A DNA stretch of 64,000 nt from an uncultured Clostridium sp. (GTDB lineage Bacteria; Bacillota; Clostridia; TANB77; CAG-508): contig CAJMJN010000004.1 in the NCBI GenBank assembly GCA_905213875.1, positions 2,370 to 66,369 on the forward strand, read 5' to 3'. The notes beneath the pieces are model-generated. The model searched no databases. It was not told where the DNA came from and was given only the letters and a program-made list of their open reading frames with translations. Below, in pieces: positions 33,464 through 49,693 of the stretch; positions within the stretch are counted from its first letter, which is position 1, and the number at the start of each line of letters is the position of its first letter. Both the position numbers and the translations under genes were made by a program.

Positions 33464-33480
33464 AAAATATATAATTAACT

Positions 33481-33665: not shown

Positions 33666-33723
33666 TATTAATAAATTGGTAGCTTTTATAATCCCTGTGT
33701 CATAGTATATACCAATTTTTCAA

Positions 33724-34110
33724 TTAAAAAATGTTTTTCAAATTAAATGCATATTTTTCTTCTATATGTTTAACCAAAAATGCTAACTCATTTATTTCTC
33801 TTATAGTTTCATCATGTTCCTCTGTTTCAATATAACTTTTTAGCAAGACCAAATTTGTATCTATTTTTTCAAGTTCATTATGTTCAATAAAATATGCTAA
33901 TTTATCTTGCTTGTTTTTCCATATTTTTTCTGTTTCTTCTAGCTTTTCTTTTACTTTAACATCATCTTCTTTTGCTTCTACTGCTTGTTTTATTTGTTGT
34001 AACGAATCTAATATTTCTTCTCCAGATTTCTTAGTATAATCTCTACTAAAAAAGTTCCCAATTGCTATTAATGCAATAATTATTAAGCAAATAACAAACT
34101 CTTTTCTCAT
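33724..34110 (-). CDS. DUF4363-like small membrane-anchored protein
   Basis: The start was chosen at MRKEFVICLIIIALIAIGNFF (one TM segment), followed by a helical domain. It lies directly downstream of a DUF421 gene, the usual pairing as I recall it. Confidence 0.55.
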   Translation of the reverse strand: MRKEFVICLIIIALIAIGNFFSRDYTKKSGEEILDSLQQIKQAVEAKEDDVKVKEKLEETEKIWKNKQDKLAYFIEHNELEKIDTNLVLLKSYIETEEHDETIREINELAFLVKHIEEKYAFNLKNIF

Positions 34111-34185
34111 TATAATTATTTTCCTTTCTCCTTCTACTTCTTTCATAACTTTAAGAAACTAAAATTTTATTTATCTTTTAAGAAA

Positions 34186-34872
34186 TTAGTCACCTTTTTC
34201 ACTTTTCTGACAAAATATTTGATTTTTTCCGTCAATTGTAATTATTAATGCTTCTTCTGGTTTTATTTTAAATTTTTCAGCTTGTTTTTTTAACCAATTA
34301 TAATCTTTTCCTATTTGTTGCAAATTCTTTTCCATTACTTTTCCATCTATAACTAAATCATATGGTATTCCTTCATATTCTGGAGTAATATTAAAATCTT
34401 CTGGTATTGTATTTCTTTTTTCTGGTTTTTGGATTACTGTTACTTGACCACTTGTCTCTAGGATTGCATATTCAACATCTCCAAAATTGAATACATTATC
34501 TGTTCTTAATCTTTCTTCTAATTCATTTATTGTAAATCTTTCCTTTTTCAAAATTTTTTCATTGATTTTGCCTCTATATATTAATATGCTTGGCTTTCCA
34601 CAAATAATTTCTCTTGCTCTCATACTTTTTAAATTTATTACAGATATTATTAAATGCATTGTAAGTAAACCTAGTATTGGAATAATTCCATTAAAAATAG
34701 GTATTCCTATATCAGTCATCGGTATTGATGCTAAGTCTGCTATCATTATTGATATTGCCAATTCAAATGGTTGTAATTGACCTATTTCTCTTTTTCCCAT
34801 TAATCTCATTACCAGTAAAACTAGAATATATAATATAATTGATCTTACAAATGTAATTATCATCAATAACAC
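34186..34872 (-). CDS. DUF421 (YetF/YdfS-family) membrane protein
   Basis: N-terminal TM region with the RLMGKREIGQLQPFELAISIMIADLAS motif and a C-terminal soluble domain. The family is known from spore inner-membrane proteins. Confidence 0.8.
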   Translation of the reverse strand: MLLMIITFVRSIILYILVLLVMRLMGKREIGQLQPFELAISIMIADLASIPMTDIGIPIFNGIIPILGLLTMHLIISVINLKSMRAREIICGKPSILIYRGKINEKILKKERFTINELEERLRTDNVFNFGDVEYAILETSGQVTVIQKPEKRNTIPEDFNITPEYEGIPYDLVIDGKVMEKNLQQIGKDYNWLKKQAEKFKIKPEEALIITIDGKNQIFCQKSEKGD

Positions 34873-35021
34873 CTACTTTAAACTTACTTTTTGTTTTAGC
34901 ATTTGCAAAATTTATATAATTTATTCAAAATTTACTGTATACTTTTTTTATTTTTGTAAATAATAATTTTATAACCTTAAAATTTTCTGCATAAATTTTT
35001 TAACTAAGGAGGTTGAATAAT

Positions 35022-35399
35022 ATGTCAGAAGTACAAGAGAATCATACATCTCAAAGTGAAACTTCTACTGTATGGCAAGTGGTTGGTAGGTTAGTTACCG
35101 CTGCTGTAGTGTTAGCTATTACTGCATTTTTCACACCTGGTTTTACTATAAATAACATTTGGACTTTAGCTATTGCAGCAATTGTTCTTACAATAGTAGA
35201 CTATCTTGTAATAAAATTTACTGGATTACATGCTAGTCCTTTTGGTAAGGGGTTTGTTGGCTTTGCATTAGCTGCAATTGTTTTATATGTAACTCAATTC
35301 TTTGTTGCAGGATATTCTATTTCATGGATGGCTGCAATTATAGGTGCTTTAATTTATGGTGTAGTTGATTACTTTATACCTGGAAATCAACAAATGTAG
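35022..35399 (+). CDS. Four-TM small membrane protein (holin-superfamily-IV-like)
   Basis: The start was chosen at MSEVQENH after AAGGAGG. Four hydrophobic helices with the repeated motif FFTPGFTI...DY. No phage genes are adjacent. Confidence 0.45.
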   Translation: MSEVQENHTSQSETSTVWQVVGRLVTAAVVLAITAFFTPGFTINNIWTLAIAAIVLTIVDYLVIKFTGLHASPFGKGFVGFALAAIVLYVTQFFVAGYSISWMAAIIGALIYGVVDYFIPGNQQM

Positions 35400-35543
35400 T
35401 AATATCAATTTAAAAGGACAATCTATTTTATTCATATTAATTGAATAAGATAAATTGTCCTTTTTTTAATTATTATAAATTTTATTTTTACTAACGATGT
35501 TATTTATTAACCTATACAAAACTTATATCTAATTACCAAAATT

Positions 35544-36218
35544 TTAATATTTTTCTACTATTTCATTTTTATTTTTATAAATATGATTTTCTGGGATAAC
35601 CCCTCTAACACATGATAATGGGTATATATTAGTATTTCTGCATACAACTGTTCCTGGATTTAATACACTATTACATCCAACTTCTACATTATCTCCAAGC
35701 ATTGCTCCAAATTTTTTCAAGCCTGTTTCTATTTGTTCTCTTTCATATTTTACAACTACTAATTTTTTATCTGATTTAACATTAGATGTTATAGAACCAG
35801 CTCCCATATGTGCTTTAAATCCTAATATTGAGTCACCTACATAATTATAATGTGGTACTTGCACTTTATTAAATAAAATAACGTTTTTTAATTCTGTTGA
35901 ATTACCAACTACAGCACCATTTCCTACAATTGCTTTTCCTCTAATAAAAGCACAATGTCTTACTTCAGCATTTTCTCCAATTATTGCTGGTCCATTTATA
36001 TATGCTGTTGGAGCAACTTTAGCTGATTTAGCTATCCATATATTTTCTCCTCTTTTTTCATATATATTAGAATCTAATTTATTTCCTAATTCAATTATAA
36101 ATTCTTCTATTTTAGGTAATGCTTCCCAAGGATATGTAACACTTTCTAACAATTCTTTTGCAATTGTTTCATCTAGATTATAAAGATTTTTAATTTTACA
36201 TTTTTCCATTTTTATCAT
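35544..36218 (-). CDS. Left-handed beta-helix (hexapeptide-repeat) acyltransferase, similar to the GlmU C-terminal domain
   Basis: Hexapeptide repeats (IIGENAEVRHCAFIRGKAIVGNGAVVGNSTELKNVILFN...). It lies downstream of a UAP-type pyrophosphorylase. Confidence 0.7.
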   Translation of the reverse strand: MIKMEKCKIKNLYNLDETIAKELLESVTYPWEALPKIEEFIIELGNKLDSNIYEKRGENIWIAKSAKVAPTAYINGPAIIGENAEVRHCAFIRGKAIVGNGAVVGNSTELKNVILFNKVQVPHYNYVGDSILGFKAHMGAGSITSNVKSDKKLVVVKYEREQIETGLKKFGAMLGDNVEVGCNSVLNPGTVVCRNTNIYPLSCVRGVIPENHIYKNKNEIVEKY

Positions 36219-36262
36219 TTCCTCTCTTAATTATTAAATTCGTAACTTAGCCCAAATTATAA

Positions 36263-37519
36263 TTATTTTCTGTTTTGCCAATATTTTTCATACAACTCTT
36301 TAGCAGTTTTAGGGCTATCTACACCTTCTCTATTTTTTACAGGTGCAAAATCATCTTCCCTTTTTCCTCTTAAAATTGCTATATCATCAAAAAATTCAAA
36401 AGCATCAAAAATAAATGATTCAAATTTATATGAATTTGGCTCAGTTGGTATTACTTCTTTTCCATTTTCGTCTATATATGAATTCTTCTTAAATGCTGTA
36501 TGATAAATAAGTGGTTCTTTACTTATTTTTTCTATTGCATCAATTGTATATAAATTACACATTATATGTGATTCTCCAAATTTTAATTCTCCATCACTAT
36601 CAACTTCTTCTGCCATTTTTTCTGGAAGTTCTGTGTATTCTATAACTTTAGGGTGATTATTCATTTTACAAAATACCCCCACTCTTTCTTGTGGGTTTGC
36701 CTTTGCAACAGATTTAGATGCTATTTGAACACCTTTTTTAACTGCCATTCCAAGTAATGTAACATCAATCATTTTTAACAAAGCATTATCCACACTACCA
36801 ATAAATACCCATTTTATTCCTTTTTCTTTCATATCTGCTAAACATCCACTTGCTCTTAAAGATGAATATGTGCCACCATTACCATCTGATGCTTCTTTTA
36901 TTTTATATTCTTTGTTTATTAAAAATTTTCCTTCTGTATCTACTAGTGGTAATTCACTTTGTTTAAATATTGTTACTTTATTTTTGTCATATCCGAAGTA
37001 ATTATTTTTTTCTAAGAACTCTACTGTATCAGCATTATTTTCTTTGCTTGTCATTATGTACCAATTAATAACTACACCATACTTTTTATTTGCTTCTTGT
37101 AAATTGTCTGCCAATATTTCAAATAAATATTTTCCTTTTCCATATACATCTAGTTTAAAAGTTCCTTTTGGGCCTGTATGTCCTAATCTTGTACCTTGAC
37201 CTCCAGCCATTGTTACAACAGCATATTGATTGTTTTTGACAATTTCTTCTCCTAATTTATCAAATTCTTCTCTTTGATCTTTTGTAAGTTTAGCTTTATC
37301 TAAATAAGGTACTGGCTCTATTTTACCTTCTTTAAATTTTATTTCTTTTTTAGTATTTTGATATAATTCCATCATTTGATGAAAATCTATTTTATTTATT
37401 TGTTCTATTAATTCTTGTTTTTTTGTTTCATCTAATTTTTCTAATATATTTACTATATGATTTTGACCATATTCTTTTAATTTGTCTATAGCTTCTTTTT
37501 CTCTATCCATTGTTTTCAT
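36263..37519 (-). CDS. UDP-N-acetylhexosamine pyrophosphorylase (UDPGP/UAP1 family)
   Basis: MAGGQGTRLGHTGPKGTF nucleotide-binding loop and the overall ~420-aa layout typical of the eukaryote-type UDP-sugar pyrophosphorylase family. Confidence 0.8.
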   Translation of the reverse strand: MKTMDREKEAIDKLKEYGQNHIVNILEKLDETKKQELIEQINKIDFHQMMELYQNTKKEIKFKEGKIEPVPYLDKAKLTKDQREEFDKLGEEIVKNNQYAVVTMAGGQGTRLGHTGPKGTFKLDVYGKGKYLFEILADNLQEANKKYGVVINWYIMTSKENNADTVEFLEKNNYFGYDKNKVTIFKQSELPLVDTEGKFLINKEYKIKEASDGNGGTYSSLRASGCLADMKEKGIKWVFIGSVDNALLKMIDVTLLGMAVKKGVQIASKSVAKANPQERVGVFCKMNNHPKVIEYTELPEKMAEEVDSDGELKFGESHIMCNLYTIDAIEKISKEPLIYHTAFKKNSYIDENGKEVIPTEPNSYKFESFIFDAFEFFDDIAILRGKREDDFAPVKNREGVDSPKTAKELYEKYWQNRK

Positions 37520-37747
37520 CCCTTCATAATCTTATATTACATTATATGTTCTATAACTAACGTTGCTATTGTATCACATGTACTTTATTTTCGCAAGTTT
37601 TGGTAAATTTTAAAATTTCATTTCGATTGTTATTTTTTCAAATTAATTTTTGTTACTAAAACTTGTCATATTTCTAATAAAAATTAAATATACATTAACT
37701 AAAGTATTAACGTAGTACAAACATCTACAAAATTCAAAGGAGGGTAT

Positions 37748-39037
37748 ATGATGGATAATACAATATTGTATCAAGACATCGCAAAAAGAACTGATGGTGA
37801 TATTTATGTAGGAGTTGTTGGTCCTGTAAGAACCGGTAAATCTACTTTTATAAAAAGATTTATGGACTTATTGGTTATTCCTAATATAGATAATGAATAT
37901 AAAAAAGAAAGAGCAAAAGATGAATTACCACAAAGTGCTGGTGGTAGGACTATAATGACAACTGAGCCAAAATTTATTCCAAATGAAGCTGTTGAAATAA
38001 GTTTAGCAAATAACTTAAAATTCAAGACACGTTTAGTTGATTGTGTAGGTTATTTAGTTGATAATGCAATTGGATATTTAGAAGATGATATGCCAAGAAT
38101 GGTAAAAACTCCTTGGTCTGAAGAAGAAATTCCTTTTGAAAAAGCAGCTGAAATAGGAACTAAGAAAGTTATAGAAGAACACTCTACTATTGGAATTTTA
38201 GTTACAACAGATGGCTCTGTAACAGGCATTCCAAGAGAAGATTATATAAAGCCAGAAGAACGAGTAGTTGCTGAATTAAAAAGCTTAAATAAGCCTTTTG
38301 TGATATTATTAAATTCTACTGACCCTAATTCTGATTATACTAAAGAATTATCTAAAACATTAGCAGAAAAATATGATACAACAGTTATTCCTATAAATTG
38401 TGAATACCTTGATATTAATGATATAAACAATATTTTTTCAAAAATATTATATGAGTTTCCTGCTGACCAAATTAGAATAAAATTTCCTAGATGGGTTGAT
38501 GGACTTGATTTTTCACACCCATTAAAAGCTGAATTATTTAAAGAAATCAAAGAAGCTTTTGAAAATGTAAATGTTTTAAAAGATATTTCCTCTTGTACTT
38601 CAAAAATTAGTTCCACTGAAATAATTTCTAATACTGTAATTACAGATATTCAACTTGGAACTGGAAATGTAAATGTTCAAATAACTTTAAAAGAAGAATT
38701 ATTTTATAAAGTTCTTTCTGAAATTACTGGTGTTGATGTAGCTAATGAAGGTGATTTATTTAAAATAATTTCAGAACTATCTATTACAAAGAAAAAATAT
38801 GACAAAATATCTTATGCCTTAGATGAAGTTGAACGTAAAGGTTATGGAATTGTTACACCTTCTATCGATGAACTTGTTTTAGAAGAACCTGAAATGGTAA
38901 AACAAGGTTCACGTTTTGGAGTAAGATTAAAAGCAACTGCACCTTCTATACATATAATAAGACCTAAACAGATACTTTTTTTATCCACCTCGCTCATTTC
39001 CAAGCCGAGGTGGAAATTTATTTTTAGCTTAACATGA
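37748..39037 (+). CDS. spoIVA: Stage IV sporulation protein A, 5' segment of a split gene (homology ends at about 38962; the last ~25 codons are element-derived)
   Basis: YQDIAKRTDGDIYVGVVGPVRTGKSTFIKRFM...DELPQSAGGRTIMTTEPKFIPNEA is the SpoIVA Walker-A N-terminus. Similarity runs to ...GSRFGVRLKATAPSIHIIR and is then replaced by PKQILFLSTSLISKPRWKFIFSLT. SpoIVA proteins are about 490 aa and continue VD[IV]E[ST]E... after this motif, so about 85 C-terminal residues are missing. Confidence 0.9.
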   Translation: MMDNTILYQDIAKRTDGDIYVGVVGPVRTGKSTFIKRFMDLLVIPNIDNEYKKERAKDELPQSAGGRTIMTTEPKFIPNEAVEISLANNLKFKTRLVDCVGYLVDNAIGYLEDDMPRMVKTPWSEEEIPFEKAAEIGTKKVIEEHSTIGILVTTDGSVTGIPREDYIKPEERVVAELKSLNKPFVILLNSTDPNSDYTKELSKTLAEKYDTTVIPINCEYLDINDINNIFSKILYEFPADQIRIKFPRWVDGLDFSHPLKAELFKEIKEAFENVNVLKDISSCTSKISSTEIISNTVITDIQLGTGNVNVQITLKEELFYKVLSEITGVDVANEGDLFKIISELSITKKKYDKISYALDEVERKGYGIVTPSIDELVLEEPEMVKQGSRFGVRLKATAPSIHIIRPKQILFLSTSLISKPRWKFIFSLT

Positions 39038-40563
39038 TTTTTTTCAATTCCTTGTACATATATCCTATCGATTTTTTCATGTATAAATTCTTTTGTTAAT
39101 TCAAATGTATCAAAATCAAAAAACTTCTTTATTTTTTGTTGATTTTTTCCAGTTTCATTTGCATCTCTATTTACTTTTAATTGTATTAATTGACTTTTAT
39201 AATCCATAATTTCGTCTTGATATTCATTCTTGATTTTTTCAAACTCATCATCAGTAATTTTATTCATAGTATATAATTTTATTAAATTAGCTTTATTCTT
39301 TTCCTTTTCATTTATTGCATTTTCTAAAATTTTTATATTTTTTTCTAATTTAAAATCCTTTTTGTCTAACCTAGAATTTGCTTTCAACATTTCTTTAAGT
39401 ATCATTGATTTCTTTTCTAATAATTCAGAAAAAACCTCACTTAATATACTATTTAATTCCTCAGTTCCAATATATGTATGATTATTACAATTTTTTAAGC
39501 CATTCTTAGCATATTCAGAACATATCCAAAATTCTTCTTTTGCTGTTGGTCTATGCTTTCTTCTCCAAAATTTTTTTCCATCATTAGTACATATCAATAA
39601 ATTAGAATATTGGTATTGATTATTCCAACGATCTCCAGTTCCAGTATACTTATTACTTCTCTTTTCCATTATTTCATTGCATTTTTGCCATATATCGTCA
39701 TTTACAATTTGTGGTACAATATTCTCTTCAGCTTTATAGGTAATCCATTCCTCTTTTGGAATTTCTATTCTTTCCTTACTCATAAAATCTATCACCTCTG
39801 TTTTTTTACCACAATAACATCCTTTATATTTTGGATTTGTAAGTATATTTTTTATTGTAGAATAAGCAAAAACATCTCCTTTTCTCGTTAATTTTCCCTC
39901 TTCTGCTAGTTTCTTTCCAATTCTCCTTATTCCAATATTTCCTGTGGAATATAATTCAAAAATTCTCGAAACAATTTCTGCTTCTTCATCGATTTTTTTC
40001 AATTTACAATTGTCTTTTTCATATCCCCATATAACATTACTGCCAAGCACTCTTCCTTTTTCTATTGCTCTATTAAATCCAAATTTTACCCTTTCTGAAA
40101 TTCTTCTACTTTCATCCTGTGCAAGTGATGCCATAAGTGTTAATCTCAATTCTCCTTCTTGTTCAAGAGTATTAATATTATCTAATTCAAAATATATACC
40201 TTTTCCTCTTGCTAATAAGTTTCTAGTAAACTGTAGTGTGTCTAATGTATTTCTTGCAAATCTACATACTTCTTTTGTTAAAATCAGATCATATTTATCA
40301 TCCATACCATCCTGTATCATATTATTAAAGTCCTCTCTTTTCTTTATTGATGTTCCTGTTATTCCACTGTCACTATAGCCTTGAACTAATGTCCATTTAG
40401 GTATAGATAAAATTTTGTTTTTGTAATAATCATCCTGATTTATTAGTGAATTTTTTTGTTCATTCTTTCCTGTAGAAACTCTTGCATAATATGTCACCCT
40501 TAAAGGTAAATCATATATTGTTTTTCCTGACATTAATGCTTTTCTAATTTCATATAATTCCAT
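38842..40563 (-). CDS. Large serine recombinase (element-proximal)
   Basis: N-terminal resolvase catalytic domain (YARVSTGKNEQKNSLINQ with catalytic Ser, LTKEVCRFARN), a recombinase domain, a Cys-containing zinc-ribbon region and a long coiled coil. The ORF reads through the junction, so its last ~40 codons are antisense spoIVA. Confidence 0.9.
   Translation of the reverse strand: MELYEIRKALMSGKTIYDLPLRVTYYARVSTGKNEQKNSLINQDDYYKNKILSIPKWTLVQGYSDSGITGTSIKKREDFNNMIQDGMDDKYDLILTKEVCRFARNTLDTLQFTRNLLARGKGIYFELDNINTLEQEGELRLTLMASLAQDESRRISERVKFGFNRAIEKGRVLGSNVIWGYEKDNCKLKKIDEEAEIVSRIFELYSTGNIGIRRIGKKLAEEGKLTRKGDVFAYSTIKNILTNPKYKGCYCGKKTEVIDFMSKERIEIPKEEWITYKAEENIVPQIVNDDIWQKCNEIMEKRSNKYTGTGDRWNNQYQYSNLLICTNDGKKFWRRKHRPTAKEEFWICSEYAKNGLKNCNNHTYIGTEELNSILSEVFSELLEKKSMILKEMLKANSRLDKKDFKLEKNIKILENAINEKEKNKANLIKLYTMNKITDDEFEKIKNEYQDEIMDYKSQLIQLKVNRDANETGKNQQKIKKFFDFDTFELTKEFIHEKIDRIYVQGIEKNHVKLKINFHLGLEMSEVDKKSICLGLIICIEGAVAFNLTPKREPCFTISGSSKTSSSIEGVTIP
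38984..39014 (+). terminator. GC-rich hairpin about 20 nt inside the element's left end
   Basis: TCCACCTCG-(13 nt)-CGAGGTGGA followed by AATTTATTTTT on the plus strand. It would stop spoIVA-derived transcription from entering the element antisense to the recombinase. Confidence 0.4.
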
Positions 40564-40671
40564 TGAAATACCTCCAAAATCTTATTTTAATCGCTTGTGT
40601 TGTAACTCTGTTTGTATTTATTGTCAACATTTTGAAAGATATTTCCAAAATTAAAAAGCCCTTATGGGCTT

Positions 40672-42303
40672 TTAACTAGCAATCTTTTGCTTATCTATGT
40701 ACTTAATTATTTTTTTCTTTTTATATAATAATTCTATTGTAATTCCAACTTTTAAAACTATTTCTAAATTTGCTAATCCTGTATCATCCAGTCTCTCTAC
40801 TTTTATTTTATCTAAAATTACATCTACTAATTGTGCTGGTATTCCTTGAAAAAATTCAAAATCCTTTTCAAAACTTTTCTTTATTATTTGCATCTTATCA
40901 TCTATTTCATCCTTATTTCTTGACATTATAAGTTTATTTTTTTCTTCTTCATAGGCTGATATTTTTTCGTTATATATATTGTTTTCTTCCTCAAATTCTT
41001 TTTCATCAATAAGTTCTGTAGTATATAATTTTATCAATTTTTTCTTTTCTTTCTTCAAGCTTTCAATTTTATTTTGTAGTGAAGTTATATCTATTTCAGT
41101 AGAACAGTCTTCAAAGCACTCTTTACATTTATTTAATAAATTCTCTATAAATTTTTCTTTATTTATAAACATTTCATTAAATATTCGTTTTAATACTTCA
41201 TCTAATGTTTCTGTATATATATTAACATTGTTTGCACATCCACTTATACCTTTTTTCTTATATAATGCACATTGCCAAAATTCTCTTCCTCTACTAATTG
41301 TTCTCCAATAACATTGTCCATCTTTTTTGCAATAAATTTTTCCAGAATATTTATATTTTGTATTATAACCAGTTGTTTCGCTTTTAGCTCTTTCACTTCT
41401 TTCTTTAAAGATTTCATTACATTTTTCCCAAATTTTTTCATCAACAATTTGTGGTACAACGTCATCTGTCGCTTTATATTCTACAATTTCATCTTCTCCA
41501 AGATTTACTCTTTGTTTAGTCATGAAATCTATAACTCTTGTCTTATTCCCAGAATAAAAGCCTTTATATTTCGGATTTGTAAGTATATTTTTTATTGTAG
41601 AATAAGCAAATGTTTCTCCTTTTTTTGTTAATATTCCTTCTTCTTCAAGTTTTTTTCCAACTTTTCGTATTCCAATATCACCTGATGCATATATTTCATA
41701 AATTCTTTTTACAATTTTTGCCTCATCTTCGTTCATTTTTAATTTACAATTATCTTTTTCATAACCCCATATAGCATTATTTCCCAATACTCGTCCTTTT
41801 TCTATTGATCTTTTAAAACCAAACTTTACTCTTTCTGAGATTCGTCTGCTTTCGTCTTGTGCTAATGATGCCATTATTGTTAATCTTAATTCTCCCTCTT
41901 GTTCTAATGTATTTATATTGTCCAGTTCAAAATAAACTCCCTTTCCCTTTGCCAATAAACTTCTAGTTAATTGTAATGTATCTAATGTATTTCTTGCAAA
42001 TCTACACACTTCTTTTGTCAATATTAAATCATACATATCATTAAGTCCATCAGAAATCATTTCATTAAAATCTTTTCTTTTTTTTGTAGAAGTACCTGTT
42101 ATACCTCTATCACTATATCCATCAACTAATGTCCACATTGGTGTATCTAAGATTTTATTTTTGTAATATATCTCTTGGTTATCTAACGAGTTTTTTTGCT
42201 CGTCCTTTTCTGTTGATACTCTTGAATAATATGTAACTCTTAGTGGTAAATCATATATCGTTTTTCCTGACATCAATTCTCTTCTTATTGTATATAAATC
42301 CAT
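40672..42303 (-). CDS. Large serine recombinase (second, paralogous)
   Basis: MDLYTIRRELMSGKTIYDLPLRVTYYSRVSTEKDEQKNSLDNQ... is closely similar to the first recombinase over the N-terminal ~300 aa and divergent in the C-terminal coiled coil. It has its own terminator hairpin (AAGCCC-TTAT-GGGCTT, about 40655-40670). Confidence 0.9.
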   Translation of the reverse strand: MDLYTIRRELMSGKTIYDLPLRVTYYSRVSTEKDEQKNSLDNQEIYYKNKILDTPMWTLVDGYSDRGITGTSTKKRKDFNEMISDGLNDMYDLILTKEVCRFARNTLDTLQLTRSLLAKGKGVYFELDNINTLEQEGELRLTIMASLAQDESRRISERVKFGFKRSIEKGRVLGNNAIWGYEKDNCKLKMNEDEAKIVKRIYEIYASGDIGIRKVGKKLEEEGILTKKGETFAYSTIKNILTNPKYKGFYSGNKTRVIDFMTKQRVNLGEDEIVEYKATDDVVPQIVDEKIWEKCNEIFKERSERAKSETTGYNTKYKYSGKIYCKKDGQCYWRTISRGREFWQCALYKKKGISGCANNVNIYTETLDEVLKRIFNEMFINKEKFIENLLNKCKECFEDCSTEIDITSLQNKIESLKKEKKKLIKLYTTELIDEKEFEEENNIYNEKISAYEEEKNKLIMSRNKDEIDDKMQIIKKSFEKDFEFFQGIPAQLVDVILDKIKVERLDDTGLANLEIVLKVGITIELLYKKKKIIKYIDKQKIAS

Positions 42304-42316
42304 ATTGAAAGCCCCC

Positions 42317-42469
42317 TTATATATTTCTAAGTATATAATCTTTCATCTGGTCATCAATTAACCCCTGTTTATTTGCTGAATTTATCAAATATTTACTTAA
42401 TTCTTCTTTAATACTGTTTTCAAATTTTTCTATTGTTTTGGTTTCGATCTTATCAAATATTTTGTCCAA
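42317..42469 (-). CDS. Small acidic ORF (50 aa) immediately upstream of the second recombinase
   Basis: TTG start 7 nt after AGAGGTGAAG. It reads MDKIFDKIETKTIEKFENSIKEELSKYLINSANKQGLIDDQMKDYILRNI and stops 13 nt before the recombinase ATG. It is not in the supplied ORF track because it is under 60 aa. Confidence 0.3.
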   Translation of the reverse strand: MDKIFDKIETKTIEKFENSIKEELSKYLINSANKQGLIDDQMKDYILRNI

Positions 42470-42526
42470 TTTCTTCACCTCTGTTAATGTATATTGAAGA
42501 AATCATTTAAATATTACTGTATTTTT

Positions 42527-42946
42527 TTATTCCCATAATATTTTCTTGGGTACATCATACCCTGTTATGATTCCACTCTTTAAATGATAAGATTTAGTAT
42601 TTTTATTATAATTATAAATAGATGAATTCCACTTTCTAAAAGCTCTATTATTTATTGTTTTTCTACCACCTGATAATTCTCTACTAGCTTGTATATGCAT
42701 TTGTCTTAATTGTGCATACGCTATATCACCATCTTTTCTTTGCTTTCTTTTTTTAGCAATATATTGCATAGTTTGAGCATTATGCTTTTTTTTGTTTATT
42801 TCTTTTCTTTTTTCTTTTTCTAATTTATATCTAAAATCTTTAGTCACTACTCTTGAAACTTTATATTTTGAAATATTTAATTCTTTCGCAATTTCTATTT
42901 GCTTCATTTTATCTTCAAAATACATTTTTAAAATTTTCTCATTCAT
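42527..42946 (-). CDS. Helix-turn-helix DNA-binding protein (element regulatory module)
   Basis: MNEKILKMYFEDKMKQIEIAKELNISKYKVSRVV has a sigma-region-4/HTH-like N-terminus followed by a basic region. Confidence 0.55.
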   Translation of the reverse strand: MNEKILKMYFEDKMKQIEIAKELNISKYKVSRVVTKDFRYKLEKEKRKEINKKKHNAQTMQYIAKKRKQRKDGDIAYAQLRQMHIQASRELSGGRKTINNRAFRKWNSSIYNYNKNTKSYHLKSGIITGYDVPKKILWE

Positions 42947-43016
42947 AGTACCCTCCTGCAACTTTTTGCTAACAGATTTTAAATATGAAGAAACTAATAG
43001 AGCTTATATTAAAACT

Positions 43017-43176: not shown

Positions 43177-43464
43177 TTATTTTTTCTCCTTTTTCTCTTT
43201 CATTATTATACTAGCTAATCTTTTTACTTCTGTATTTCCAAATTTTTCATAAAACATTGTTACTTCTTCTTTTATAGACTTGGCTGTTATGTCTGTATTG
43301 CTATTTTTTAATGTATGGAATGCTAACTGTGCATAAGCAGTAATAAGTTCTATTTCGGTTTTAGAATTATTTTTGCTTATTACATCTTTTGTTTTACTAA
43401 AAGTCTTTGTTTCTTTTAAATCTTTTACTTCTGTAACTTGATTTGTATTTCCTTTTTCATCCAT
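43177..43464 (-). CDS. Hypothetical protein
   Basis: 95-aa ORF with RBS GGAGG. I recognise no motif. Confidence 0.45.
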   Translation of the reverse strand: MDEKGNTNQVTEVKDLKETKTFSKTKDVISKNNSKTEIELITAYAQLAFHTLKNSNTDITAKSIKEEVTMFYEKFGNTEVKRLASIIMKEKKEKK

Positions 43465-43520: not shown

Positions 43521-43691
43521 TTATAATTTTTTTCTATTTTTTGTTAAAGTTTTATAAATCATATATTTTATTTCTTGCATTAAGTCTTCATCAATTCCAT
43601 TCCTTAGCTTACTCATACTTGTAATTAGTGGATTATAATCATCTAAAATTTTCAATATTTCTACATCATCTAAATTAAAGTTATTAAACAT
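43521..43691 (-). CDS. Small ORF (56 aa) overlapping the stop of the sigma-like gene
   Basis: MFNNFNLDDVEILKILDDYNPLITSMSKLRNGIDEDLMQEIKYMIYKTLTKNRKKL. The ATG overlaps the upstream stop. The arrangement resembles the small-ORF/sigma-like pairs of Firmicute conjugative or integrative elements. Confidence 0.35.
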   Translation of the reverse strand: MFNNFNLDDVEILKILDDYNPLITSMSKLRNGIDEDLMQEIKYMIYKTLTKNRKKL

Positions 43692-44118
43692 TGTTTTTTC
43701 CTCCTAGTAATTTTTTTGTAATCTTTTCTTGTGCCTTATTTCTTATTCTCCATATTGTTGTTCTTTCTACATTCATTTCTTTAGCTATTTGATTTATACT
43801 TTTTTCTTCTTTATATAAAGCAAAAAGCACCATCTTTTCTTTTCCAGACAATGCTTTCGCTACATTATATAATTTTTCATCACAAAAAAGTCTCTCGAAT
43901 TCAAGAGCGGACTTTAACTCATCGACACATTTATTAAGAACAGCATCAAATAAACTGCTACTTTCCATATCCTCACAAATATCCAAATTGATTTCTTTAC
44001 TGTTTAAATATTCATAATTATTTTTTATGTATTTTTTTCTAACATTTATAATCAACTTTTTTAAATATGATTTTTCTTCTTTTGATAATTCTTCTTGTAA
44101 ATAATTTTTTCTTTCCAT
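43684..44118 (-). CDS. Sigma-70 region-4-like / HTH regulator
   Basis: The C-terminal KEKMVLFALYKEEKSINQIAKEMNVERTTIWRIRNKAQEKI is a typical region-4 HTH. Confidence 0.6.
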   Translation of the reverse strand: MERKNYLQEELSKEEKSYLKKLIINVRKKYIKNNYEYLNSKEINLDICEDMESSSLFDAVLNKCVDELKSALEFERLFCDEKLYNVAKALSGKEKMVLFALYKEEKSINQIAKEMNVERTTIWRIRNKAQEKITKKLLGGKNNV

Positions 44119-44461
44119 TTATTATCTCTCCAATTTCTAAAAATTGGACAAATATCTAAAAGAGAAAGAAAAACAAATATTAAATTATTTTTTCTTATTC
44201 TTTATAATTTACTTTTACATATTTTTATCACTCCTAACAAATAATCTTTAATTAATAAAAAATCTCTTGTACTTTATTATTTCTTCTAATGTATTATTTT
44301 TCTAACTCTTAAAGACTATTTGTCCTATTGGAGATTATACTTTTTAATGTTGTTTCATTGTAAAAACGGCGATAGATGGCTAATAAACGGCGAAAAATGG
44401 TTAAAATTATTCATAATCAGTTATATTTTTAGTTTTATTTGTAAAAATCTTCCATTTTGTA

Positions 44462-44490
44462 TTGTGTTTACATAATTTTAGTGATATAAT
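44462..44490 (+). promoter_or_regulatory. Candidate promoter of the Spo0A-like gene
   Basis: TTGTGT, a 17-nt spacer, then TATAAT (44485-44490), about 35 nt upstream of the ATG. Confidence 0.35.
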
Positions 44491-44525
44491 ATTGTTGATT
44501 TATAAAATTGTTAGGAGAAGTTATC

Positions 44526-45230
44526 ATGGTAAAGATTCTTTCAGTCATTCAAAATATTGAGCAAAATTCTCAACTTTGCCAATACCTTACGCAAGATAAC
44601 AATATTGATTTTAAAATTACTAGTGATGAAGTTTCTGTTTTGAAACAGTATTACGATTTTAGACCTGACATTTTTATATTAGACACCAGTTTTAAAAATA
44701 TAAAATATAGTGATGTAATCAATGAGCTTTCATTAGATGATACTGAACAATTCAAATGTAATACCATATTACTTTATAACTCTACTACTGAATTATTAAA
44801 TCTTGCAAATTGGTCTAAAATATATAATATATTTTTAAAAACTACAGATTATAAAAATATTTTAAAAGCTATATATGAAATGTCTAATTACACTTTAGAA
44901 AGAAAAATTGATAGGCTATTTTTAAAGTTACATATTCCATTAGAAAGTAGCCCTTCAAATCGTGTTAGAAAAACATTAATTAAATGTTGTAATTCGCCTA
45001 ATTTACTTGGCAATTTAAACACTTTATTTAATACAGTTGGCAAGGAACTTGGAACAACCGGTGAAGGTATTCGTTCTTCTTTTAGAACTGCATTAAAGCC
45101 TTTAAATGAATTTAAAGATAAAGAAGATTTGCCTTTTGCAATTTATAAATTCTTTCCAAAAGGCGAAGAAGTTACCCCAAAATTATTTTTAGATATTAGC
45201 ATATATTATTTGAAAAACACAAAAAAATAA
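44526..45230 (+). CDS. Spo0A-like regulator paralogue (atypical receiver plus a Spo0A_C-like DNA-binding domain)
   Basis: The N-terminal ~120 aa have a CheY-like layout (DIFILDTSF...). The C-terminal LFLKLHIPLESSPSNRVRKTLIKCC...LFNTVGKELGTTGEGIRSSFRTALKPL parallels the Spo0A effector-domain pattern (..GVPAHIKGY.YLR.AI...LY..IA....TT.SRVERAIRHAI). Confidence 0.65.
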   Translation: MVKILSVIQNIEQNSQLCQYLTQDNNIDFKITSDEVSVLKQYYDFRPDIFILDTSFKNIKYSDVINELSLDDTEQFKCNTILLYNSTTELLNLANWSKIYNIFLKTTDYKNILKAIYEMSNYTLERKIDRLFLKLHIPLESSPSNRVRKTLIKCCNSPNLLGNLNTLFNTVGKELGTTGEGIRSSFRTALKPLNEFKDKEDLPFAIYKFFPKGEEVTPKLFLDISIYYLKNTKK

Positions 45231-45272
45231 CAGATAAGTTTTAGTATGATCAAAAACTTATCTGTTATTTTT
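45230..45272. terminator. Bidirectional terminator between the Spo0A-like gene and the radical SAM gene
   Basis: ACAGATAAGTTT...AAACTTATCTGT stem flanked by an A-run and a T-run, between convergent genes. Confidence 0.6.
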
Positions 45273-46465
45273 TATTTATTATTTTTATAATCATTATATT
45301 GATTAATAATATCCACTACACTATTACTTATGTTATCTGAACTTGATATTACTGAATTTAACTTTCTTCCTATAATATCATACATCTCATCTATTTCATT
45401 TTCTTGTACCTTATTATCTATTATCATATTGAATATAGGAATATTATTTTCTAATTTTTCTTTTGAAGATTTTACAAGATCTAATCCGTTCATATTATCC
45501 ATAGCATATTTTGTAAATATCATTTCTGGTTTTAAATCTACAATTTTATGATATGTTTCTGTTCCATCTTTTGCTGTACCAACTATATCAACAAAATCAA
45601 GTTTTTTTATTGCATCAACTATCTTGTTTGTTATATTTATATCATTATGTGCAATTAAAGTTCTAATTTTTCCATTTGAATATATTTTATCAAAATCTAT
45701 TATTTCTTCTTTTAAAGCATTTCCAAAATAATGATCCTTTCCATTTTGTGTTTGAATTATATCTGCATTTGGAACAATTACTATACTTTTTTCAAATTCA
45801 CTTTGTTTTTTATATTCTACAGTTTTGATATTCTCAAATTTTCTTAATCTTTTTACACTATTTTCTAATTCTTTTTCTTCTATTTCAAATAGTTTTTCAT
45901 TTTTTTCTGCCCTTTCTCTAATAGGCATAAACTTCAAAAATTTCCATTTTTCTATTTGATAGTTATTTAAAAATTCTCCTAATTCATCTAATTTATCAAC
46001 ATTAAGCCTGCTAACAACCGTGTTTATTCTTACTTTTATATTCTTGTTTTTAGTTTTTTCTAAAAGATTTTTTATAATATCTAAATGATTATTTTCTTTA
46101 CCTAATGCTAAATTGATATCATTTTCAATTGAATCAATAGATAAATTGATTTCATCAAGTGTATTTAAAATATCTTCTACATATTCGTTATCGTTCTTTG
46201 ATAAGTAAATTCCGTTCGTTACTAATTTATTATATAATCCTCTTTCTTTTGATTCTCTCATTAATTCATTTACTCTTGGATATAATACCGCTTCTCCACC
46301 AGTCCAAGTAATATGGTTTATCCCACTTGCAATTAAATGATTTAATACTCTTTCATTTTCTTCAAAAGATAGATTTGGTATATTGTTAAATCCAAAACAA
46401 TATTTACATCCTTGATTACATTTAGTTGTTATTTTCCAACAAACTTTTTTCTTAATCATATACAT
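45272..46465 (-). CDS. Viperin-like radical SAM enzyme fused to a C-terminal degenerate receiver (REC-like) domain
   Basis: CNQGCKYC (CX3CX2C) in the context [17 protein letters not shown]. By eye I could align it collinearly to animal viperin: [26 protein letters not shown] vs [34 protein letters not shown] vs FKINSVINRFNV, and [12 protein letters not shown] vs RWKVFQCLLIEG. Residues ~270-390 have a CheY-like alternating pattern, but with Lys where the phospho-acceptor Asp is expected. Confidence 0.7.
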
Positions 46466-46604: not shown

Positions 46605-47480
46605 TTATATATTTTTTAAATATTCTTTAATGAATTTTTTATCTACCTTTGTCAATTCACCTTTTAGATAAATTAAGTTTAATTTTAGGCTAGGCAATTC
46701 TATTGGCATTTCAACTTCATATAATTCTTTATTATTTAATTCATTCTTTACAGCCTCTTTTATAACATATGCAATTCCCATATTTTTCTTAACTGCTTCA
46801 ACTCTTACTTCGGTTGCATCACACATTATATCAGCATTAATATTAACATTGTATTCTTTTAAAAGTTCCTTTAATCGTTTTGTTGCTTTTGTATTTTCAA
46901 GGTTTAAAATACAATTCAATTTTTCAATTTCTTTTATATCTGCAATTTTCAATGGTGCTTTTGAAACAAATATATTATTAATTTTTAATAATTCTTCTAT
47001 TTCAATATTGCTATTTTCAATCTCTGTATCTATTATTGCAAAATCAATTTCATGATTTTGCAACAAACTCATCATTTTGTTTATATCAACTTCACATATT
47101 ATTTTTATATTAAGATCTGGATAATCCCTCTTAACTTTTTCTATTTTTTCCATTAGTAAATAACTTGTAAAATGTGATGGGCATCCTATTTTTATGCAGC
47201 CACTTGATATATCATTCTTATCCTTTGCTAATTTTTCTGCAAAGTCAAATCCTGATATTGATTTATTTACTATTTCATATAATTCTTTGCCATTTTCTGT
47301 TAGAGTTACTCCTTTGTTTTCCCTATTAAATAGTTTTAAATTTAATTGTTCTTCTAAATTTGATATTTGTGTACTAACATTTGGAACTGATAATCCTAAT
47401 TTCTCTGCTGCCTCTGAATAACTTTTGGATTGAGCAACTTTACAAAATATTCTATATAAGTTCAAATTTACATTTGACAT
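46605..47480 (-). CDS. LysR-family transcriptional regulator
   Basis: N-terminal wHTH (LYRIFCKVAQSKSYSEAAEKLGLSVPNVSTQISNLEEQLNLKLFNR) and a C-terminal substrate-binding domain. Confidence 0.9.
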   Translation of the reverse strand: MSNVNLNLYRIFCKVAQSKSYSEAAEKLGLSVPNVSTQISNLEEQLNLKLFNRENKGVTLTENGKELYEIVNKSISGFDFAEKLAKDKNDISSGCIKIGCPSHFTSYLLMEKIEKVKRDYPDLNIKIICEVDINKMMSLLQNHEIDFAIIDTEIENSNIEIEELLKINNIFVSKAPLKIADIKEIEKLNCILNLENTKATKRLKELLKEYNVNINADIMCDATEVRVEAVKKNMGIAYVIKEAVKNELNNKELYEVEMPIELPSLKLNLIYLKGELTKVDKKFIKEYLKNI

Positions 47481-47492
47481 ACAATCACACTC

Positions 47493-48062
47493 CTATAAAA
47501 TTTTTCTTAATTCTATTTCAGCTTTCTTTATAAAATAATCATTTGTATCTACTGGAAGATTTAATCTTTCCAACTCTTGTTTTATTTTATCTATTGTATC
47601 TAATTGTTCATTTTCTTCAATCTCAATTAGCTTATCACCATTTAGTACATCTTTTATACATATTTGCAACTCATTTTTCTTATAAAGATAATCCATTTCC
47701 TTAATTTGCATAATTGCTTTATAATCAATTGCTTCTAAAAATTTTTTTCCATCATTTGAATCTATAATTTTACAATCAACTTTACTTTGTTTTACTATAT
47801 TTCCTTCTTGATCAATTTCTTTTTTCTTATATGTTAGTTTACTTTCTCTATATTTGTTTGGAATGTATCCTTCAACATTTCGTAAAATTATTGCTTTACT
47901 TAATATATCTCGTTCTGACATATTCTTTATATTAATTGTATTCGGTATATAATAAATATCGTCCAGTAAATATCTTTCTACAAATTGAAATCCTTTGCTT
48001 TCTAATATTTTGCATATTTCTTCTACAGTACATTTTAATTTGACTGTTATTTCATTACTCAA
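47493..48062 (-). CDS. CYTH-domain protein (CyaB / triphosphate-tunnel family), paralogue A
   Basis: 189 aa with a beta-rich pattern starting NEITVKLK (where ExExK is expected) and ending in a C-terminal helix. It is clearly paralogous to 63335..63925. Confidence 0.65.
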   Translation of the reverse strand: MSNEITVKLKCTVEEICKILESKGFQFVERYLLDDIYYIPNTINIKNMSERDILSKAIILRNVEGYIPNKYRESKLTYKKKEIDQEGNIVKQSKVDCKIIDSNDGKKFLEAIDYKAIMQIKEMDYLYKKNELQICIKDVLNGDKLIEIEENEQLDTIDKIKQELERLNLPVDTNDYFIKKAEIELRKIL

Positions 48063-48204
48063 CTTAATATATCTCCTTTACAGTATCACTCTTAAATTAT
48101 AACATATTATGTAAATTTTGTAAAGTTTTAACCAGTCTCTTTTCTCCTTTATTCCCTTAATATATTGCTTTTTATAAAACAAAAAAGATTAGCACTACGC
48201 TAAC

Positions 48205-48462
48205 CTACTCTTCCTCTTTTAAAAAGTCATCTAACTTTTTATCAAATAAAATACTAAATTTAATCAACAATTTTAATGAGCATGTTTTTACTTCATCATT
48301 TAGTGATTCAATTCTTCTTAAATAATCGTGGGACATATCCAATATTTCTGCTACTTCCATTAATGACATTCCACTTTCTTTTCTATACTTTTTTATATTT
48401 TTGTATATAATAGGCATATAATCTTTTGATAATAATGCCTTTAACTTTTCGTTATTCTCCAT
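48205..48462 (-). CDS. XRE-family HTH regulator
   Basis: 85 aa. ..ESGMSLMEVAEILDMSHDYLRRIES.. is an HTH_3-type motif. Confidence 0.8.
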   Translation of the reverse strand: MENNEKLKALLSKDYMPIIYKNIKKYRKESGMSLMEVAEILDMSHDYLRRIESLNDEVKTCSLKLLIKFSILFDKKLDDFLKEEE

Positions 48463-48644
48463 TTAAAACACCTCTTAACAAACTTATTTTTCCATAAATT
48501 AGATAAAAAATATGTAACTTATTTGTCCCATTTAGTGTTTTTATGGTATAATACTGAATAGTAATAAAAAAGTGGCGATTTTTGACAAGTTTTGTCGATT
48601 GTATTGATTATTTGTAAAAAAGTATTACTATATACTTATAGCAA

Positions 48645-48902
48645 TTACTTTTTTCGATGAATATCGACTCTTGGCTCTAGTTTATTTGCTTTTGGATTGG
48701 CAATAAAAAGCAAATAAGGATCTACATCAAGTGCTTTTGCTATATTTTCAATAGTAGGAATTGATGGACTGTATTTTCCTTGTTCAATATCTGATATATA
48801 ATGTGTACTTAAACCAGACAACTCTCCTAACTTTTCTTGTGAGTAGTCTTGCATAAATCTATAATACTTTACATTTTTGCGAAAAATATCTATTAACTTC
48901 AT
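48645..48902 (-). CDS. XRE-family HTH regulator
   Basis: 85 aa. NVKYYRFMQDYSQEKLGELSGLSTHYISDIEQGKYSPSIPTIENIAKAL is a canonical Cro/C1-type HTH. Confidence 0.85.
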   Translation of the reverse strand: MKLIDIFRKNVKYYRFMQDYSQEKLGELSGLSTHYISDIEQGKYSPSIPTIENIAKALDVDPYLLFIANPKANKLEPRVDIHRKK

Positions 48903-48941
48903 TATATATCACCACACTTTCTAATACCATTCTTTTTAGTA

Positions 48942-48950
48942 TGGTATAAT
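48942..48950 (+). promoter_or_regulatory. Extended -10 element (TGGTATAAT) upstream of the membrane REC gene
   Basis: TATGGTATAAT lies divergent from the XRE gene at 48645..48902. A near-identical TATGGTATAAT occurs at 48542-48552, divergent from the other XRE gene. Confidence 0.35.
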
Positions 48951-49063
48951 TTTGTAGCAATATTCACAATGAAGTATATAGCCCAAACATTTTTCTATTA
49001 TAATAAAATACTTTAAAAATCCCAGTATTTTTATTAAAATTTATAGAAAGGAATTCATAAAAA

Positions 49064-49693
49064 ATGTTGTATTTTTTTATTGGTCTTAGTATTGTATTTT
49101 TTGTGCTTATAATCATATTATTTTATAAGATAAATACCTATAATAATAAATTAGCTAAACTAAATAACACTATTTCACAAAAGGAAAGTAAGATTTCTTT
49201 TCTTAATAATGAAATTACAAGGCTAAAAAATTCAGCACAAATATTAGAAGAAAAAGAATTTGAATCTTTAAAGTCAAATCCTTTTAAATTCTCTGAAATT
49301 CCAGAAGAATATAACGGAAAATTTGAAGGTAAAAAAGCCTTAATTGGTAATTATGATAATTTTTCTTCTAAATTAACTCGTACAATGTTAATGAATTTTG
49401 GAATTTCGGCAGATATTGTTACTACAGGTATTGATATATATGACAGAATAAAAAATGGTTGTACATATGATATTATTTTTACAAACAATATTTATCAAAA
49501 AGGCTATACTGGTCCTGAATTATTACATAAATTAAAAAACATTAACGGTTTTAAAACCCCAGTTATTATTCATACTATATCACATGATGCAAGAGAATAC
49601 TTTGTAAATACTATTGGTTTTGATGATTATTTAGAAAAGCCAATAAAATATGAAGAACTTAAAAATATCTTAAACAAATTTTTAAATACTTAA
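49064..49693 (+). CDS. Membrane-anchored coiled-coil protein with a degenerate receiver domain
   Basis: N-terminal TM segment ([17 protein letters not shown]), a coiled coil, then a CheY-like domain ([10 protein letters not shown]...[19 protein letters not shown]...KPI) with Asn at the phospho-acceptor position. Confidence 0.6.

Follow-up and report, generated by a model that had tools for sequence, protein, structure and literature searches.

The locus

The DNA analysed here is a 64,000-nucleotide stretch of an uncultured Clostridium sp. (contig CAJMJN010000004.1, positions 2,370 to 66,369), called the window below. It is AT-rich (22–29% GC) and its locus matches metagenome-assembled genomes (MAGs) from gut samples, labelled uncultured Clostridia or Clostridium. 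It holds the left part of an integrative element that interrupts the sporulation gene spoIVA, and within that element, on the plus strand, the open reading frame (ORF) 44526–45230, which encodes a Spo0A-like protein of 234 amino acids, with a pseudo-receiver (residues 1–120) followed by a DNA-binding domain of the Spo0A_C fold (residues 121–234). Upstream of this gene lies an array of four 7-bp boxes (44367–44404), and on the other side of the array a divergent, leftward operon runs from a sigma-factor-like gene to two large serine recombinases. The product of ORF 44526–45230, hereafter the paralogue, is a diverged member of the Spo0A family and a core regulator of the integrative element, not the sporulation regulator of the host.

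Kinship with Spo0A

The gene itself is real: a ribosome-binding site (AGGAGAA, 44513–44519) precedes the ATG at 44526, and the homologues of the paralogue all begin with MVKIL too. An earlier note on this DNA, made from the letters and the ORF translations, had read the product as a CheY-like half joined to a C-terminal region with the pattern of the Spo0A effector domain. Family profiles and a model of the C-terminal domain bear this out. The check that the note proposed, a search with the Pfam profile PF08769 (Spo0A_C), gave a divided answer. As a single sequence the paralogue has no Pfam match even at E ≤ 10, so that the gathering score of PF08769 is not reached, and single-sequence searches against Pfam, NCBIfam, PADLOC, PHROGs and the PDB returned nothing useful; it is at the level of the family that the kinship appears. 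The refuting outcome named in the note, no significant profile match, thus holds for the lone sequence and not for its family.

The paralogue has about 35 close homologues (48–99% identity), 23 of which make up the alignment and profile A1. Scanned one by one, 18 of the 23 match PF08769 (best 1.4e-4) and 19 match the receiver profile PF00072 (best 1.2e-6). In the PDB, profile A1 matches the Spo0A receiver structures 9PHZ (6e-4) and 1DZ3, and its positions 123–191 match the Spo0A effector structures 1LQ1 and 1FC3; when the C-terminal half is used as a profile of its own, these two are the only near-significant matches (0.008 and 0.019). Among 1.8 billion representative proteins, A1 retrieves 502 at E ≤ 1e-3, mostly of 230–250 amino acids, and reaches the canonical Spo0A P0302 at E = 6.9e-11. 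According to Pfam, P0302 is a textbook Spo0A (Spo0A_C 1.5e-39, REC 1.5e-18), while the intermediate relatives P0270, P0187 and P0281 exceed the 25-bit cut-off of Spo0A_C. The alignment of the paralogue with P0302, a canonical database Spo0A and not the host's own, is collinear across both domains (over residues 5–219 with tblastn).

The structural comparison leads to the same family. A search of the PDB with a full-length model was discarded as uninformative about the C-terminal domain, since NarL/LiaR-type regulators dominated it through the receiver half, and residues 121–234 were therefore modelled separately (mean predicted local distance difference test 91.7, predicted template-modelling score 0.85). 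The top seven PDB matches of this model are all Spo0A effector domains, with query-normalised template-modelling (TM) scores of 0.71–0.80 (0.75–0.80 being given for 1LQ1 and 1FC3) and root-mean-square deviations (rmsd) of 2.6–3.3 Å. The best is 1LQ1_C (TM 0.80/0.82, rmsd 2.8 Å, 114 columns), and every match in the PDB other than Spo0A has E > 1 and TM < 0.4.

The earlier note had also suggested that the element might carry a mimic of Spo0A, and this part does not hold. In receivers, the acidic pair binds the Mg2+ required for phosphorylation. This pair, DD, is replaced by IQ in the paralogue and by NQ in the family consensus, and with it the canonical Spo0A receiver pattern (acidic pair, acceptor Asp, Thr/Ser, Lys) is lost. 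The acceptor Asp is kept in the paralogue (D53), while 11 of the 23 close homologues have A, G, N, Y or H in its place; only 37 of 118 full-length family members retain both acidic residues and the acceptor. These substitutions suggest that the paralogue is probably phosphorylation-blind. The segment aligned to the Spo0A recognition helix TASRVERAIRHAIE is TTGEGIRSSFRTALK, that is, EGIRSSFRT stands where Spo0A has SRVERAIRH and almost all residues differ. In Spo0A, E213 and R214 of this helix reportedly contact bases of the 0A box, according to the description of 1LQ1; the aligned residues here are R and S. Within the close family R183, S184, S185, R187 and T188 (the IRSSFRT helix) are invariant, and across the wider family the recognition helix is highly variable, a pattern which suggests that the paralogue most likely has a DNA specificity of its own. 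With a degenerate receiver and a changed recognition helix, the protein is therefore better described as a paralogue than as a faithful mimic of Spo0A.

The box array and the promoters around it

The two direct repeats reported in the earlier note are found exactly at 44364–44379 and 44385–44400. Their core ACGGCGA occurs twice in the window, both times in these repeats, where 0.07 copies are expected, and none of 100 shuffles reached two. The two 16-nt repeats contain four heptamers, and they appear to be better read as such, namely as an alternation of CGGCGAA-like and TGGTTAA-like boxes. All four lie on the plus strand: box 1, CGGCGAT (44367–44373); box 2, TGGCTAA (44377–44383); box 3, CGGCGAA (44388–44394); and box 4, TGGTTAA (44398–44404). 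They start 10, 11 and 10 bp apart, with gaps of 3, 4 and 3 bp. No second phased array of such heptamers exists elsewhere in the window, including near the promoters of the viperin-like, LysR and XRE genes described below.

In loci L002 and L004–L009 the orthologue, too, is preceded by the array, and L003 has lost exactly one 21-bp unit, which leaves half an array. Across eight loci the consensus is CGGCGAA for the odd boxes and TGGTTAA for the even ones, while in L007 all four are TGGTYAA-like. The layout extends further than the letters: in the distant clade L012–L015 the arrangement is the same, with other box sequences (GGGCTAC, GGGTTAA, GGGTACA and others) and another recognition helix (EKIKSCLRG). 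As for the likeness to the 0A box (TGNCGAA) that had been claimed for the repeats, the 7-bp size and the gaps of 3–4 bp stand and so does the proximity of two of the boxes, boxes 1 to 4 having 2, 1, 1 and 2 mismatches; exact copies of TGNCGAA, on the other hand, number five in the window, which is the level expected by chance.

To which promoter the boxes belong can be read from distances. A TATAAT on the minus strand (44334–44339, ATTATA on the plus strand), the predicted −10 element of a leftward promoter, is 100% identical in all nine aligned loci, in a context where the adjoining 27 nt are only 52–56% identical. Box 1 lies 27 nt from it in the window and in L002–L004, L006 and L009, and 26 nt in L007; for L005 and L008 a count by hand gives 27 nt in each. 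The rightward promoter of the paralogue keeps no such fixed spacing, box 1 being anywhere from 68 to 113 nt away from it. We therefore assign the boxes to the leftward promoter and not to the paralogue's own: their register is locked to the promoter of the recombinase operon. No good −35 element is found at 17 nt from the leftward TATAAT, and the array would abut the −35 position of this predicted promoter. If transcription started near 44327, the box centres would be at about −43, −53, −64 and −74.

The rightward promoter (44462–44490, plus strand) consists of TTGTGT at 44462–44467 and an extended −10 element, TGATATAAT, at 44482–44490; GTGnTATAAT and TTGTGTTnACATAA are invariant in nine loci. 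The TTGTGT overlaps a TTTACA that a consensus scan had paired with TATTGT. Downstream, between the convergent paralogue and viperin-like genes, the sequence reads as a hairpin followed by a T-run (45230–45265, ACAGATAAGTTTT...AAAACTTATCTGT), likely a bidirectional terminator, which the consensus scan missed because the stem has too few G–C pairs for its rule. With this strong extended −10 promoter and a terminator of its own, the paralogue gene is inferred to be a separate transcription unit.

Several observations concern the long leader of the leftward operon and the regulatory regions. The motif TATTTGTCC occurs five times in the window for 1.06 expected, and three copies are in regulatory regions of the element (44146–44154 on the minus strand, 44317–44325 and 48520–48528 on the plus strand). 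Two of these constitute an inverted repeat of 13 nt, at a distance of 162 nt, on either side of the leader. The predicted fold of the leader is better than those of shuffled controls (z = −3.9), with a 3' hairpin that covers the ribosome-binding site of the sigma-like gene. Simple regular-expression scans found no promoter of the sigma-E or sigma-K type on the recombinase strand, which is weak evidence, and an Rfam scan of 38.5–50.5 kb gave nothing relevant.

The earlier note had pointed to a second pair of candidate 0A boxes, TGGCGAT (48573–48579) and TGTCGAT (48593–48599). They are present as written, and we reject them as 0A boxes: they overlap a dyad, TGACAAG-T-TTTGTCG (48583–48597), between two genes of XRE repressors, and in L003 the counterpart is a perfect palindrome, TGACAAG-T-CTTGTCA, in which the CG cores are changed (TAGTGAT, TGTCAAT). 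The two heptamers read better as half-sites of this palindromic operator, which likely belongs to the flanking XRE repressors.

The element in spoIVA

The 5' part of spoIVA (37748–38967, plus strand) encodes the ATPase and middle domains (Pfam SpoIVA_ATPase 5.7e-120, SpoIVA_middle 2e-60) and lacks SpoIVA_C; the gene is cut after codon 406, and its ORF reads into the DNA of the element up to a stop at 39037. An intact allele of 492 amino acids, P0037, is 99% identical, and its locus, L020, matches the window over 32001–38967 at 98.6% and then diverges. Intact alleles from the same species (96–99% identity) are found in L020–L024, and those other than L020 are four metagenome contigs. The comparison loci being MAGs and metagenome contigs, strain mixtures and excision look alike in them. 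The left junction (attL), or crossover region, is at 38948–38967: the window is common to intact spoIVA up to 38967 and to the flank of locus L001 from 38948.

The 3' fragment of spoIVA was sought and not found in the window, in the 10 kb that follow it on the right and in L016–L019, and an exact-match scan of metagenomes gave four intact alleles only. Since the 3' end is not in the window, more than 25 kb of the insertion lies there. The paralogue gene, 5.5 kb inside the element, belongs to an insertion which the intact spoIVA locus lacks, and its module also occurs at other sites, so that it does not behave as a vertically inherited chromosomal gene; that it is encoded by the element, as the earlier note had supposed, is confirmed.

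The same arrangement recurs in related sequences. P0039 has the same truncation of spoIVA with the same read-through tail, in L006 the same split gene adjoins the same recombinases, and there are several other clusters of truncated SpoIVA proteins of 428 amino acids (83–88% identity). Since L006 and these clusters keep the split, the gene probably has to be restored. The mother cell needs spoIVA early on, which raises the question of the timing of excision. With this locus, spoIVA joins the sporulation genes known to be interrupted by recombinase-bearing elements.

Other observations bear on the extent and mobility of the element. Its cargo includes sugar-nucleotide genes. In L019 (1–6400), the DNA that lies 3.5–10 kb beyond the right end of the window encodes proteins of a type IV secretion system (TraG/VirD4-like, TrbL-like, TraC-like and VirB4-like proteins, and an M23 peptidase), in place of which other assemblies have a SpaA/TED surface protein. 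It may be that the larger element is conjugative in some hosts. Locus L001 (1–2422) has a 99.9%-identical element with a different left flank, containing polysaccharide deacetylase-like and ABC-2 permease-like ORFs, which joins at the same AT-rich core, ATATAATAAGA. Two explanations present themselves for this flank: the element has integrated at a second site, or an excised copy has had its ends joined (attP).

The regulatory module

The first gene of the leftward operon, divergent from the paralogue, encodes a sigma-factor-like protein of 144 amino acids (43684–44118, minus strand), with sub-threshold matches to NCBIfam sigma70-ECF (1.2e-7) and to Pfam Sigma70_r4/DUF1492 and a match to PHROG transcription regulators; it adjoins the paralogue gene in 13 of 15 genome loci. 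On the same strand follow a conserved protein of 95 amino acids without family match (43177–43464), a protein of 144 amino acids, conserved in the module, with a helix-turn-helix (HTH) like that of sigma region 4 (42527–42961), and an ORF of 53 codons (42317–42478) directly upstream of the recombinases. This last product is, by position only, a candidate directionality factor; an ORF of 54 codons has the same position in L025–L027. The recombinase next to it (543 amino acids, 40672–42303, minus strand) is a tandem paralogue, with about 79% DNA identity over about 900 nt, of the recombinase at the junction (573 amino acids, 38842–40563, minus strand; Pfam Resolvase, Recombinase and Zn_ribbon_recom, PHROG integrase 2e-102). 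The gene at the junction has no stop inside the element: its last 41 codons or so are the antisense strand of spoIVA (38842–38967), and its tail differs in L001. The C-terminus of this recombinase therefore depends on the DNA to which the end of the element is joined.

On the other side of the paralogue gene, a viperin-like radical S-adenosylmethionine enzyme is fused to a second pseudo-receiver (45272–46465, minus strand; PADLOC pVip 6e-41, NCBIfam viperin_w_prok 1.3e-36, the latter below cut-off). It always adjoins the paralogue. Its receiver tail has HN for DD and K for the acceptor Asp, and BLASTP detects no similarity between this tail and the receiver half of the paralogue. The fusion of a receiver to a pVip-type enzyme looked unusual to us; in L005, L008 and L009 enzyme and receiver are encoded by separate genes. 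Then come a LysR regulator (46605–47480, minus strand), a conserved protein of 189 amino acids without family match (47493–48062, minus strand), whose size and EITVKLK start are tentatively reminiscent of CYTH/triphosphate-tunnel enzymes, the two XRE repressors (48205–48462 and 48645–48902, both minus strand) and a membrane-anchored coiled-coil protein with a third degenerate receiver (49064–49693, plus strand), in which the acceptor Asp is read as Asn. From the LysR regulator to the membrane protein these genes span 46605–49693, and the block common to L025–L027 stops just after the last gene. The presence of three degenerate receivers within 5 kb suggests a partner-switching set rather than phosphotransfer.

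The module is seen in L001–L009, L012–L015 and L025–L027. Its gene order is conserved in L001–L007, and a sigma-like gene and a divergent paralogue are likewise paired in L008 and L009, with a DUF1492 partner, and in the distant clade L012–L015. In L025–L027 the same module contains an 88%-identical paralogue (P0003) with a different recombinase of 599 amino acids, and the left flanks differ at the three places, none of which has a spoIVA fragment. A role specific to spoIVA is therefore not indicated. A search for relatives in IMG/VR, GenBank phages and PLSDB plasmids gave none.

The comparison of the window (38842–42961) with L002 and L025–L027 also reveals a modular exchange of integration units. 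In these four loci the regulatory module is nearly identical (paralogues 88–98%), and the recombinases are replaced by the single 599-residue enzyme, with just 37% identity; from 94% in the gene of the 95-residue protein, identity falls to about 60% in the HTH gene, and the break is between these two. Separately, we note that the distant Spo0A-like clade L011–L015 (for example L014, 7903–8619) keeps an acidic receiver (AEDNE…ILDLGLP). In these five loci, which come from different MAGs, the frame breaks at the same point, after …LPKMT, with a +1 shift to GLEVLNEL…; either the loci have a frameshift mutation in common, or the shift is programmed.

Which protein binds the boxes?

The paralogue is the sole protein of the neighbourhood that combines a receiver-like and a DNA-binding domain, the others being of the LysR, XRE and sigma-like types. 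This, together with the Spo0A-type geometry of the site, is the reason why we propose it as the ligand of the boxes. The paralogue would bind the four boxes as a head-to-tail oligomer, in the manner of Spo0A on tandem 0A boxes but without phosphorylation, and from about −43 to −74 would control the leftward promoter and, through it, the operon of the sigma-like protein, the HTH protein and the recombinases, hence integration and excision. Activation is more likely than repression, because the leftward promoter has no usable −35 element. We hold this proposal, in which a phosphorylation-independent regulator of the Spo0A fold, encoded by the element, would control the excision module via the four boxes, with a confidence that falls somewhat short of even.

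Several points weigh against it. The leftward promoter is itself a prediction, made from conservation alone. The promoter of the paralogue looks strong and constitutive, so that an activator of the excision operon would need some further control. The IRSSFRT helix is constant in the close family while the boxes drift (CGGCGAA, AAGCGAA, TGGTCAA), and there is no simple one-to-one co-variation. Last, the odd boxes are only one or two mismatches from the 0A box of the host, which makes phosphorylated host Spo0A (Spo0A~P) a credible alternative ligand.

In that case Spo0A~P would bind the boxes, alone or beside the paralogue, and the signal for entry into sporulation would switch on the recombinase operon. 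On average the odd boxes deviate from TGNCGAA at 1.6 positions, and in L004 there is a perfect match, TGGCGAA. The weaker box that follows each odd box after 3 bp reproduces the layout of proven sites, in which a good box is accompanied by an imperfect one 3 bp away, and host Spo0A is exploited in precisely this manner, between divergent promoters, by phi29 and Nf, two phages (PMC2731898). The interruption of spoIVA, kept in L006 and in several of the truncated 428-residue clusters, would suit an early exit in the mother cell. However, the CGAA core is missing from all four boxes of L007 and weakened in L006 and L009, when the recognition helix of host Spo0A is nearly invariant; the regulatory regions of the element within the window contain no exact TGNCGAA; and the same module, with its 88%-identical paralogue, is found at three places without spoIVA on the left flank. 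Overall we regard control by host Spo0A~P as rather unlikely.

The proximity of several other regulators must also be considered. It may be that another protein of the element (sigma-like, HTH, LysR or XRE) binds the boxes, or that these have an iteron-like function, while the paralogue regulates the viperin-like operon or a distant cargo. The paralogue indeed always adjoins the viperin-like, LysR and 189-residue genes, even when the recombinase module is different or undetected (L008, L009), and several further DNA-binding proteins are encoded within 5 kb. On the contrary, direct repeats spaced by helical turns are typical of effectors of the response-regulator type, whereas LysR and XRE proteins usually bind dyads; a clear XRE palindrome is already at hand at 48583–48597; a second array is lacking near the viperin, LysR and XRE promoters; and there is no gene of a replication initiator nearby. 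We therefore find it doubtful that the array serves another protein of the element.

It is also improbable, in our opinion, that the target of the paralogue is the host, as a mimic or decoy on 0A boxes or by titrating the kinases or partners of Spo0A, so that sporulation would be held back or forced. It has been proposed that spo0A homologues carried by phages manipulate sporulation (PMC10294663), and the fold and domain order are shared with Spo0A; but almost all residues of the recognition helix are changed, which makes the binding of identical 0A boxes unlikely, a receiver without acidic pocket cannot act as a phosphate sink, and the diversity of this helix in the wider family is more in line with a multitude of private targets than with a single regulon of the host common to all.

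A mixed scheme, to which we give only a slim chance, is that host Spo0A~P would occupy the CGGCGAA-type boxes and the paralogue the TGGTTAA-type ones, the two being possibly joined via their receivers, in a logical AND gate that times the exit from spoIVA. If this were true, the leftward excision operon would fire only when the commitment of the host to sporulation coincides with a factor of the element. Any sharing of the array with host Spo0A~P would show a mobile element wired into the sporulation decision of its host.

Finally, the idea that the repeats are coding, in a small ORF (44320/44346–44475) whose peptide has an NGDRWL/NGEKWL repeat, is hardly tenable and was rejected, since no conserved ORF covers the array: in the window and in L002 a TTG-initiated ORF of 51 codons does run across the repeats, but no ORF with a start crosses the array in L005, L008 and L009, elsewhere frame, length and start vary without a convincing ribosome-binding site, and changes such as TGG to AGG retain the GG and not the residue.

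Comparison with known systems

Like canonical Spo0A, the paralogue has a receiver followed by the Spo0A-specific helical DNA-binding domain, whose model superimposes on 1LQ1 with a TM score of 0.80, and the array shares with tandem 0A boxes the size of 7 bp and the spacing of 3 bp. The differences are that canonical Spo0A has about 270 amino acids against 234 with a short linker here, that the paralogue has lost the acidic pair and has EGIRSSFRT for SRVERAIRH, and that it resides on a mobile element beside recombinases, with no single-sequence Pfam match, instead of in a chromosomal spo0A locus. The Spo0A effector fold has so far been treated as nearly private to the master regulator of sporulation; here it belongs to a family of about 500 sequence clusters, whose recognition helices are very diverse and whose receivers are repeatedly degenerate.

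Response regulators that function independently of phosphorylation have already been described: HP1043 of Helicobacter, ChxR of Chlamydia, and GlnR and JadR1 of Streptomyces, for instance. As in these proteins, the receiver fold is kept and the phosphorylation pocket is lost, and the protein is presumably active constitutively or via partners. The effector domains of these atypical regulators are of the OmpR or NarL type, unlike the Spo0A-type domain of the paralogue, which is borne by an element and has two more degenerate receivers within 5 kb.

Mobile elements and phages of gut bacteria are known to carry such domains. PF08769 is enriched in mobile genetic elements of gut Firmicutes (PMC6907783), truncated spo0A homologues with the effector domain only occur in gut phages (PMC10294663), and some Clostridiales have two or three spo0A genes (bioRxiv 10.1101/2022.02.25.481979). 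The paralogue resembles the mobile and phage genes in being a Spo0A-type domain that escapes the normal phosphorelay control and is carried by a mobile element in a gut spore-former. The phage homologues consist of the effector only, whereas the family of the paralogue keeps a receiver half, often degenerate, and comes with a candidate site and operon.

The recombinase side has its own precedents. Intervening elements interrupt sigK (skin) and spsM (SPbeta), and also spoVFB or spoIVFB, spoVR, gerE and kamA (PMC4191935, PMC6957869, PMC5025042). spoIVA, a mother-cell gene and sigma-E target (PMC5025042), is not among the interrupted sporulation genes named in these three papers. As in the skin and SPbeta-type elements, a large serine recombinase at the junction splits a sporulation gene, intact alleles exist, and the split is kept across related species. 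The putative intervening element described here differs from them in its target, in its two tandem recombinases, in its extent of more than 25 kb within the window and its cargo (with type IV secretion genes further on in one relative), and in that its module is also found with another recombinase at left flanks other than spoIVA.

A parallel for the site exists in the phages phi29 and Nf. Genuine sites of Spo0A comprise two 7-bp boxes with 3 bp in between, and some are located between divergent phage promoters (PMC2731898); these phages and the present element alike have their box pairs in a mobile genome, flanked by divergent promoters of which one has no −35 element. The ligand is host Spo0A~P on TGTCGAA boxes in phi29 and Nf (PMC2731898), whereas here it would be the element's own Spo0A-fold protein on alternating CGGCGAA and TGGTTAA boxes.

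To these systems the present locus adds a family that retains its receiver and is probably blind to phosphorylation, a candidate operator with its target operon, the association with a recombinase module, and spoIVA as a target site. Surveys had reported Spo0A_C domains on gut mobile elements and phages without target or mechanism; this locus names a protein, a four-box site, a promoter and an output operon.

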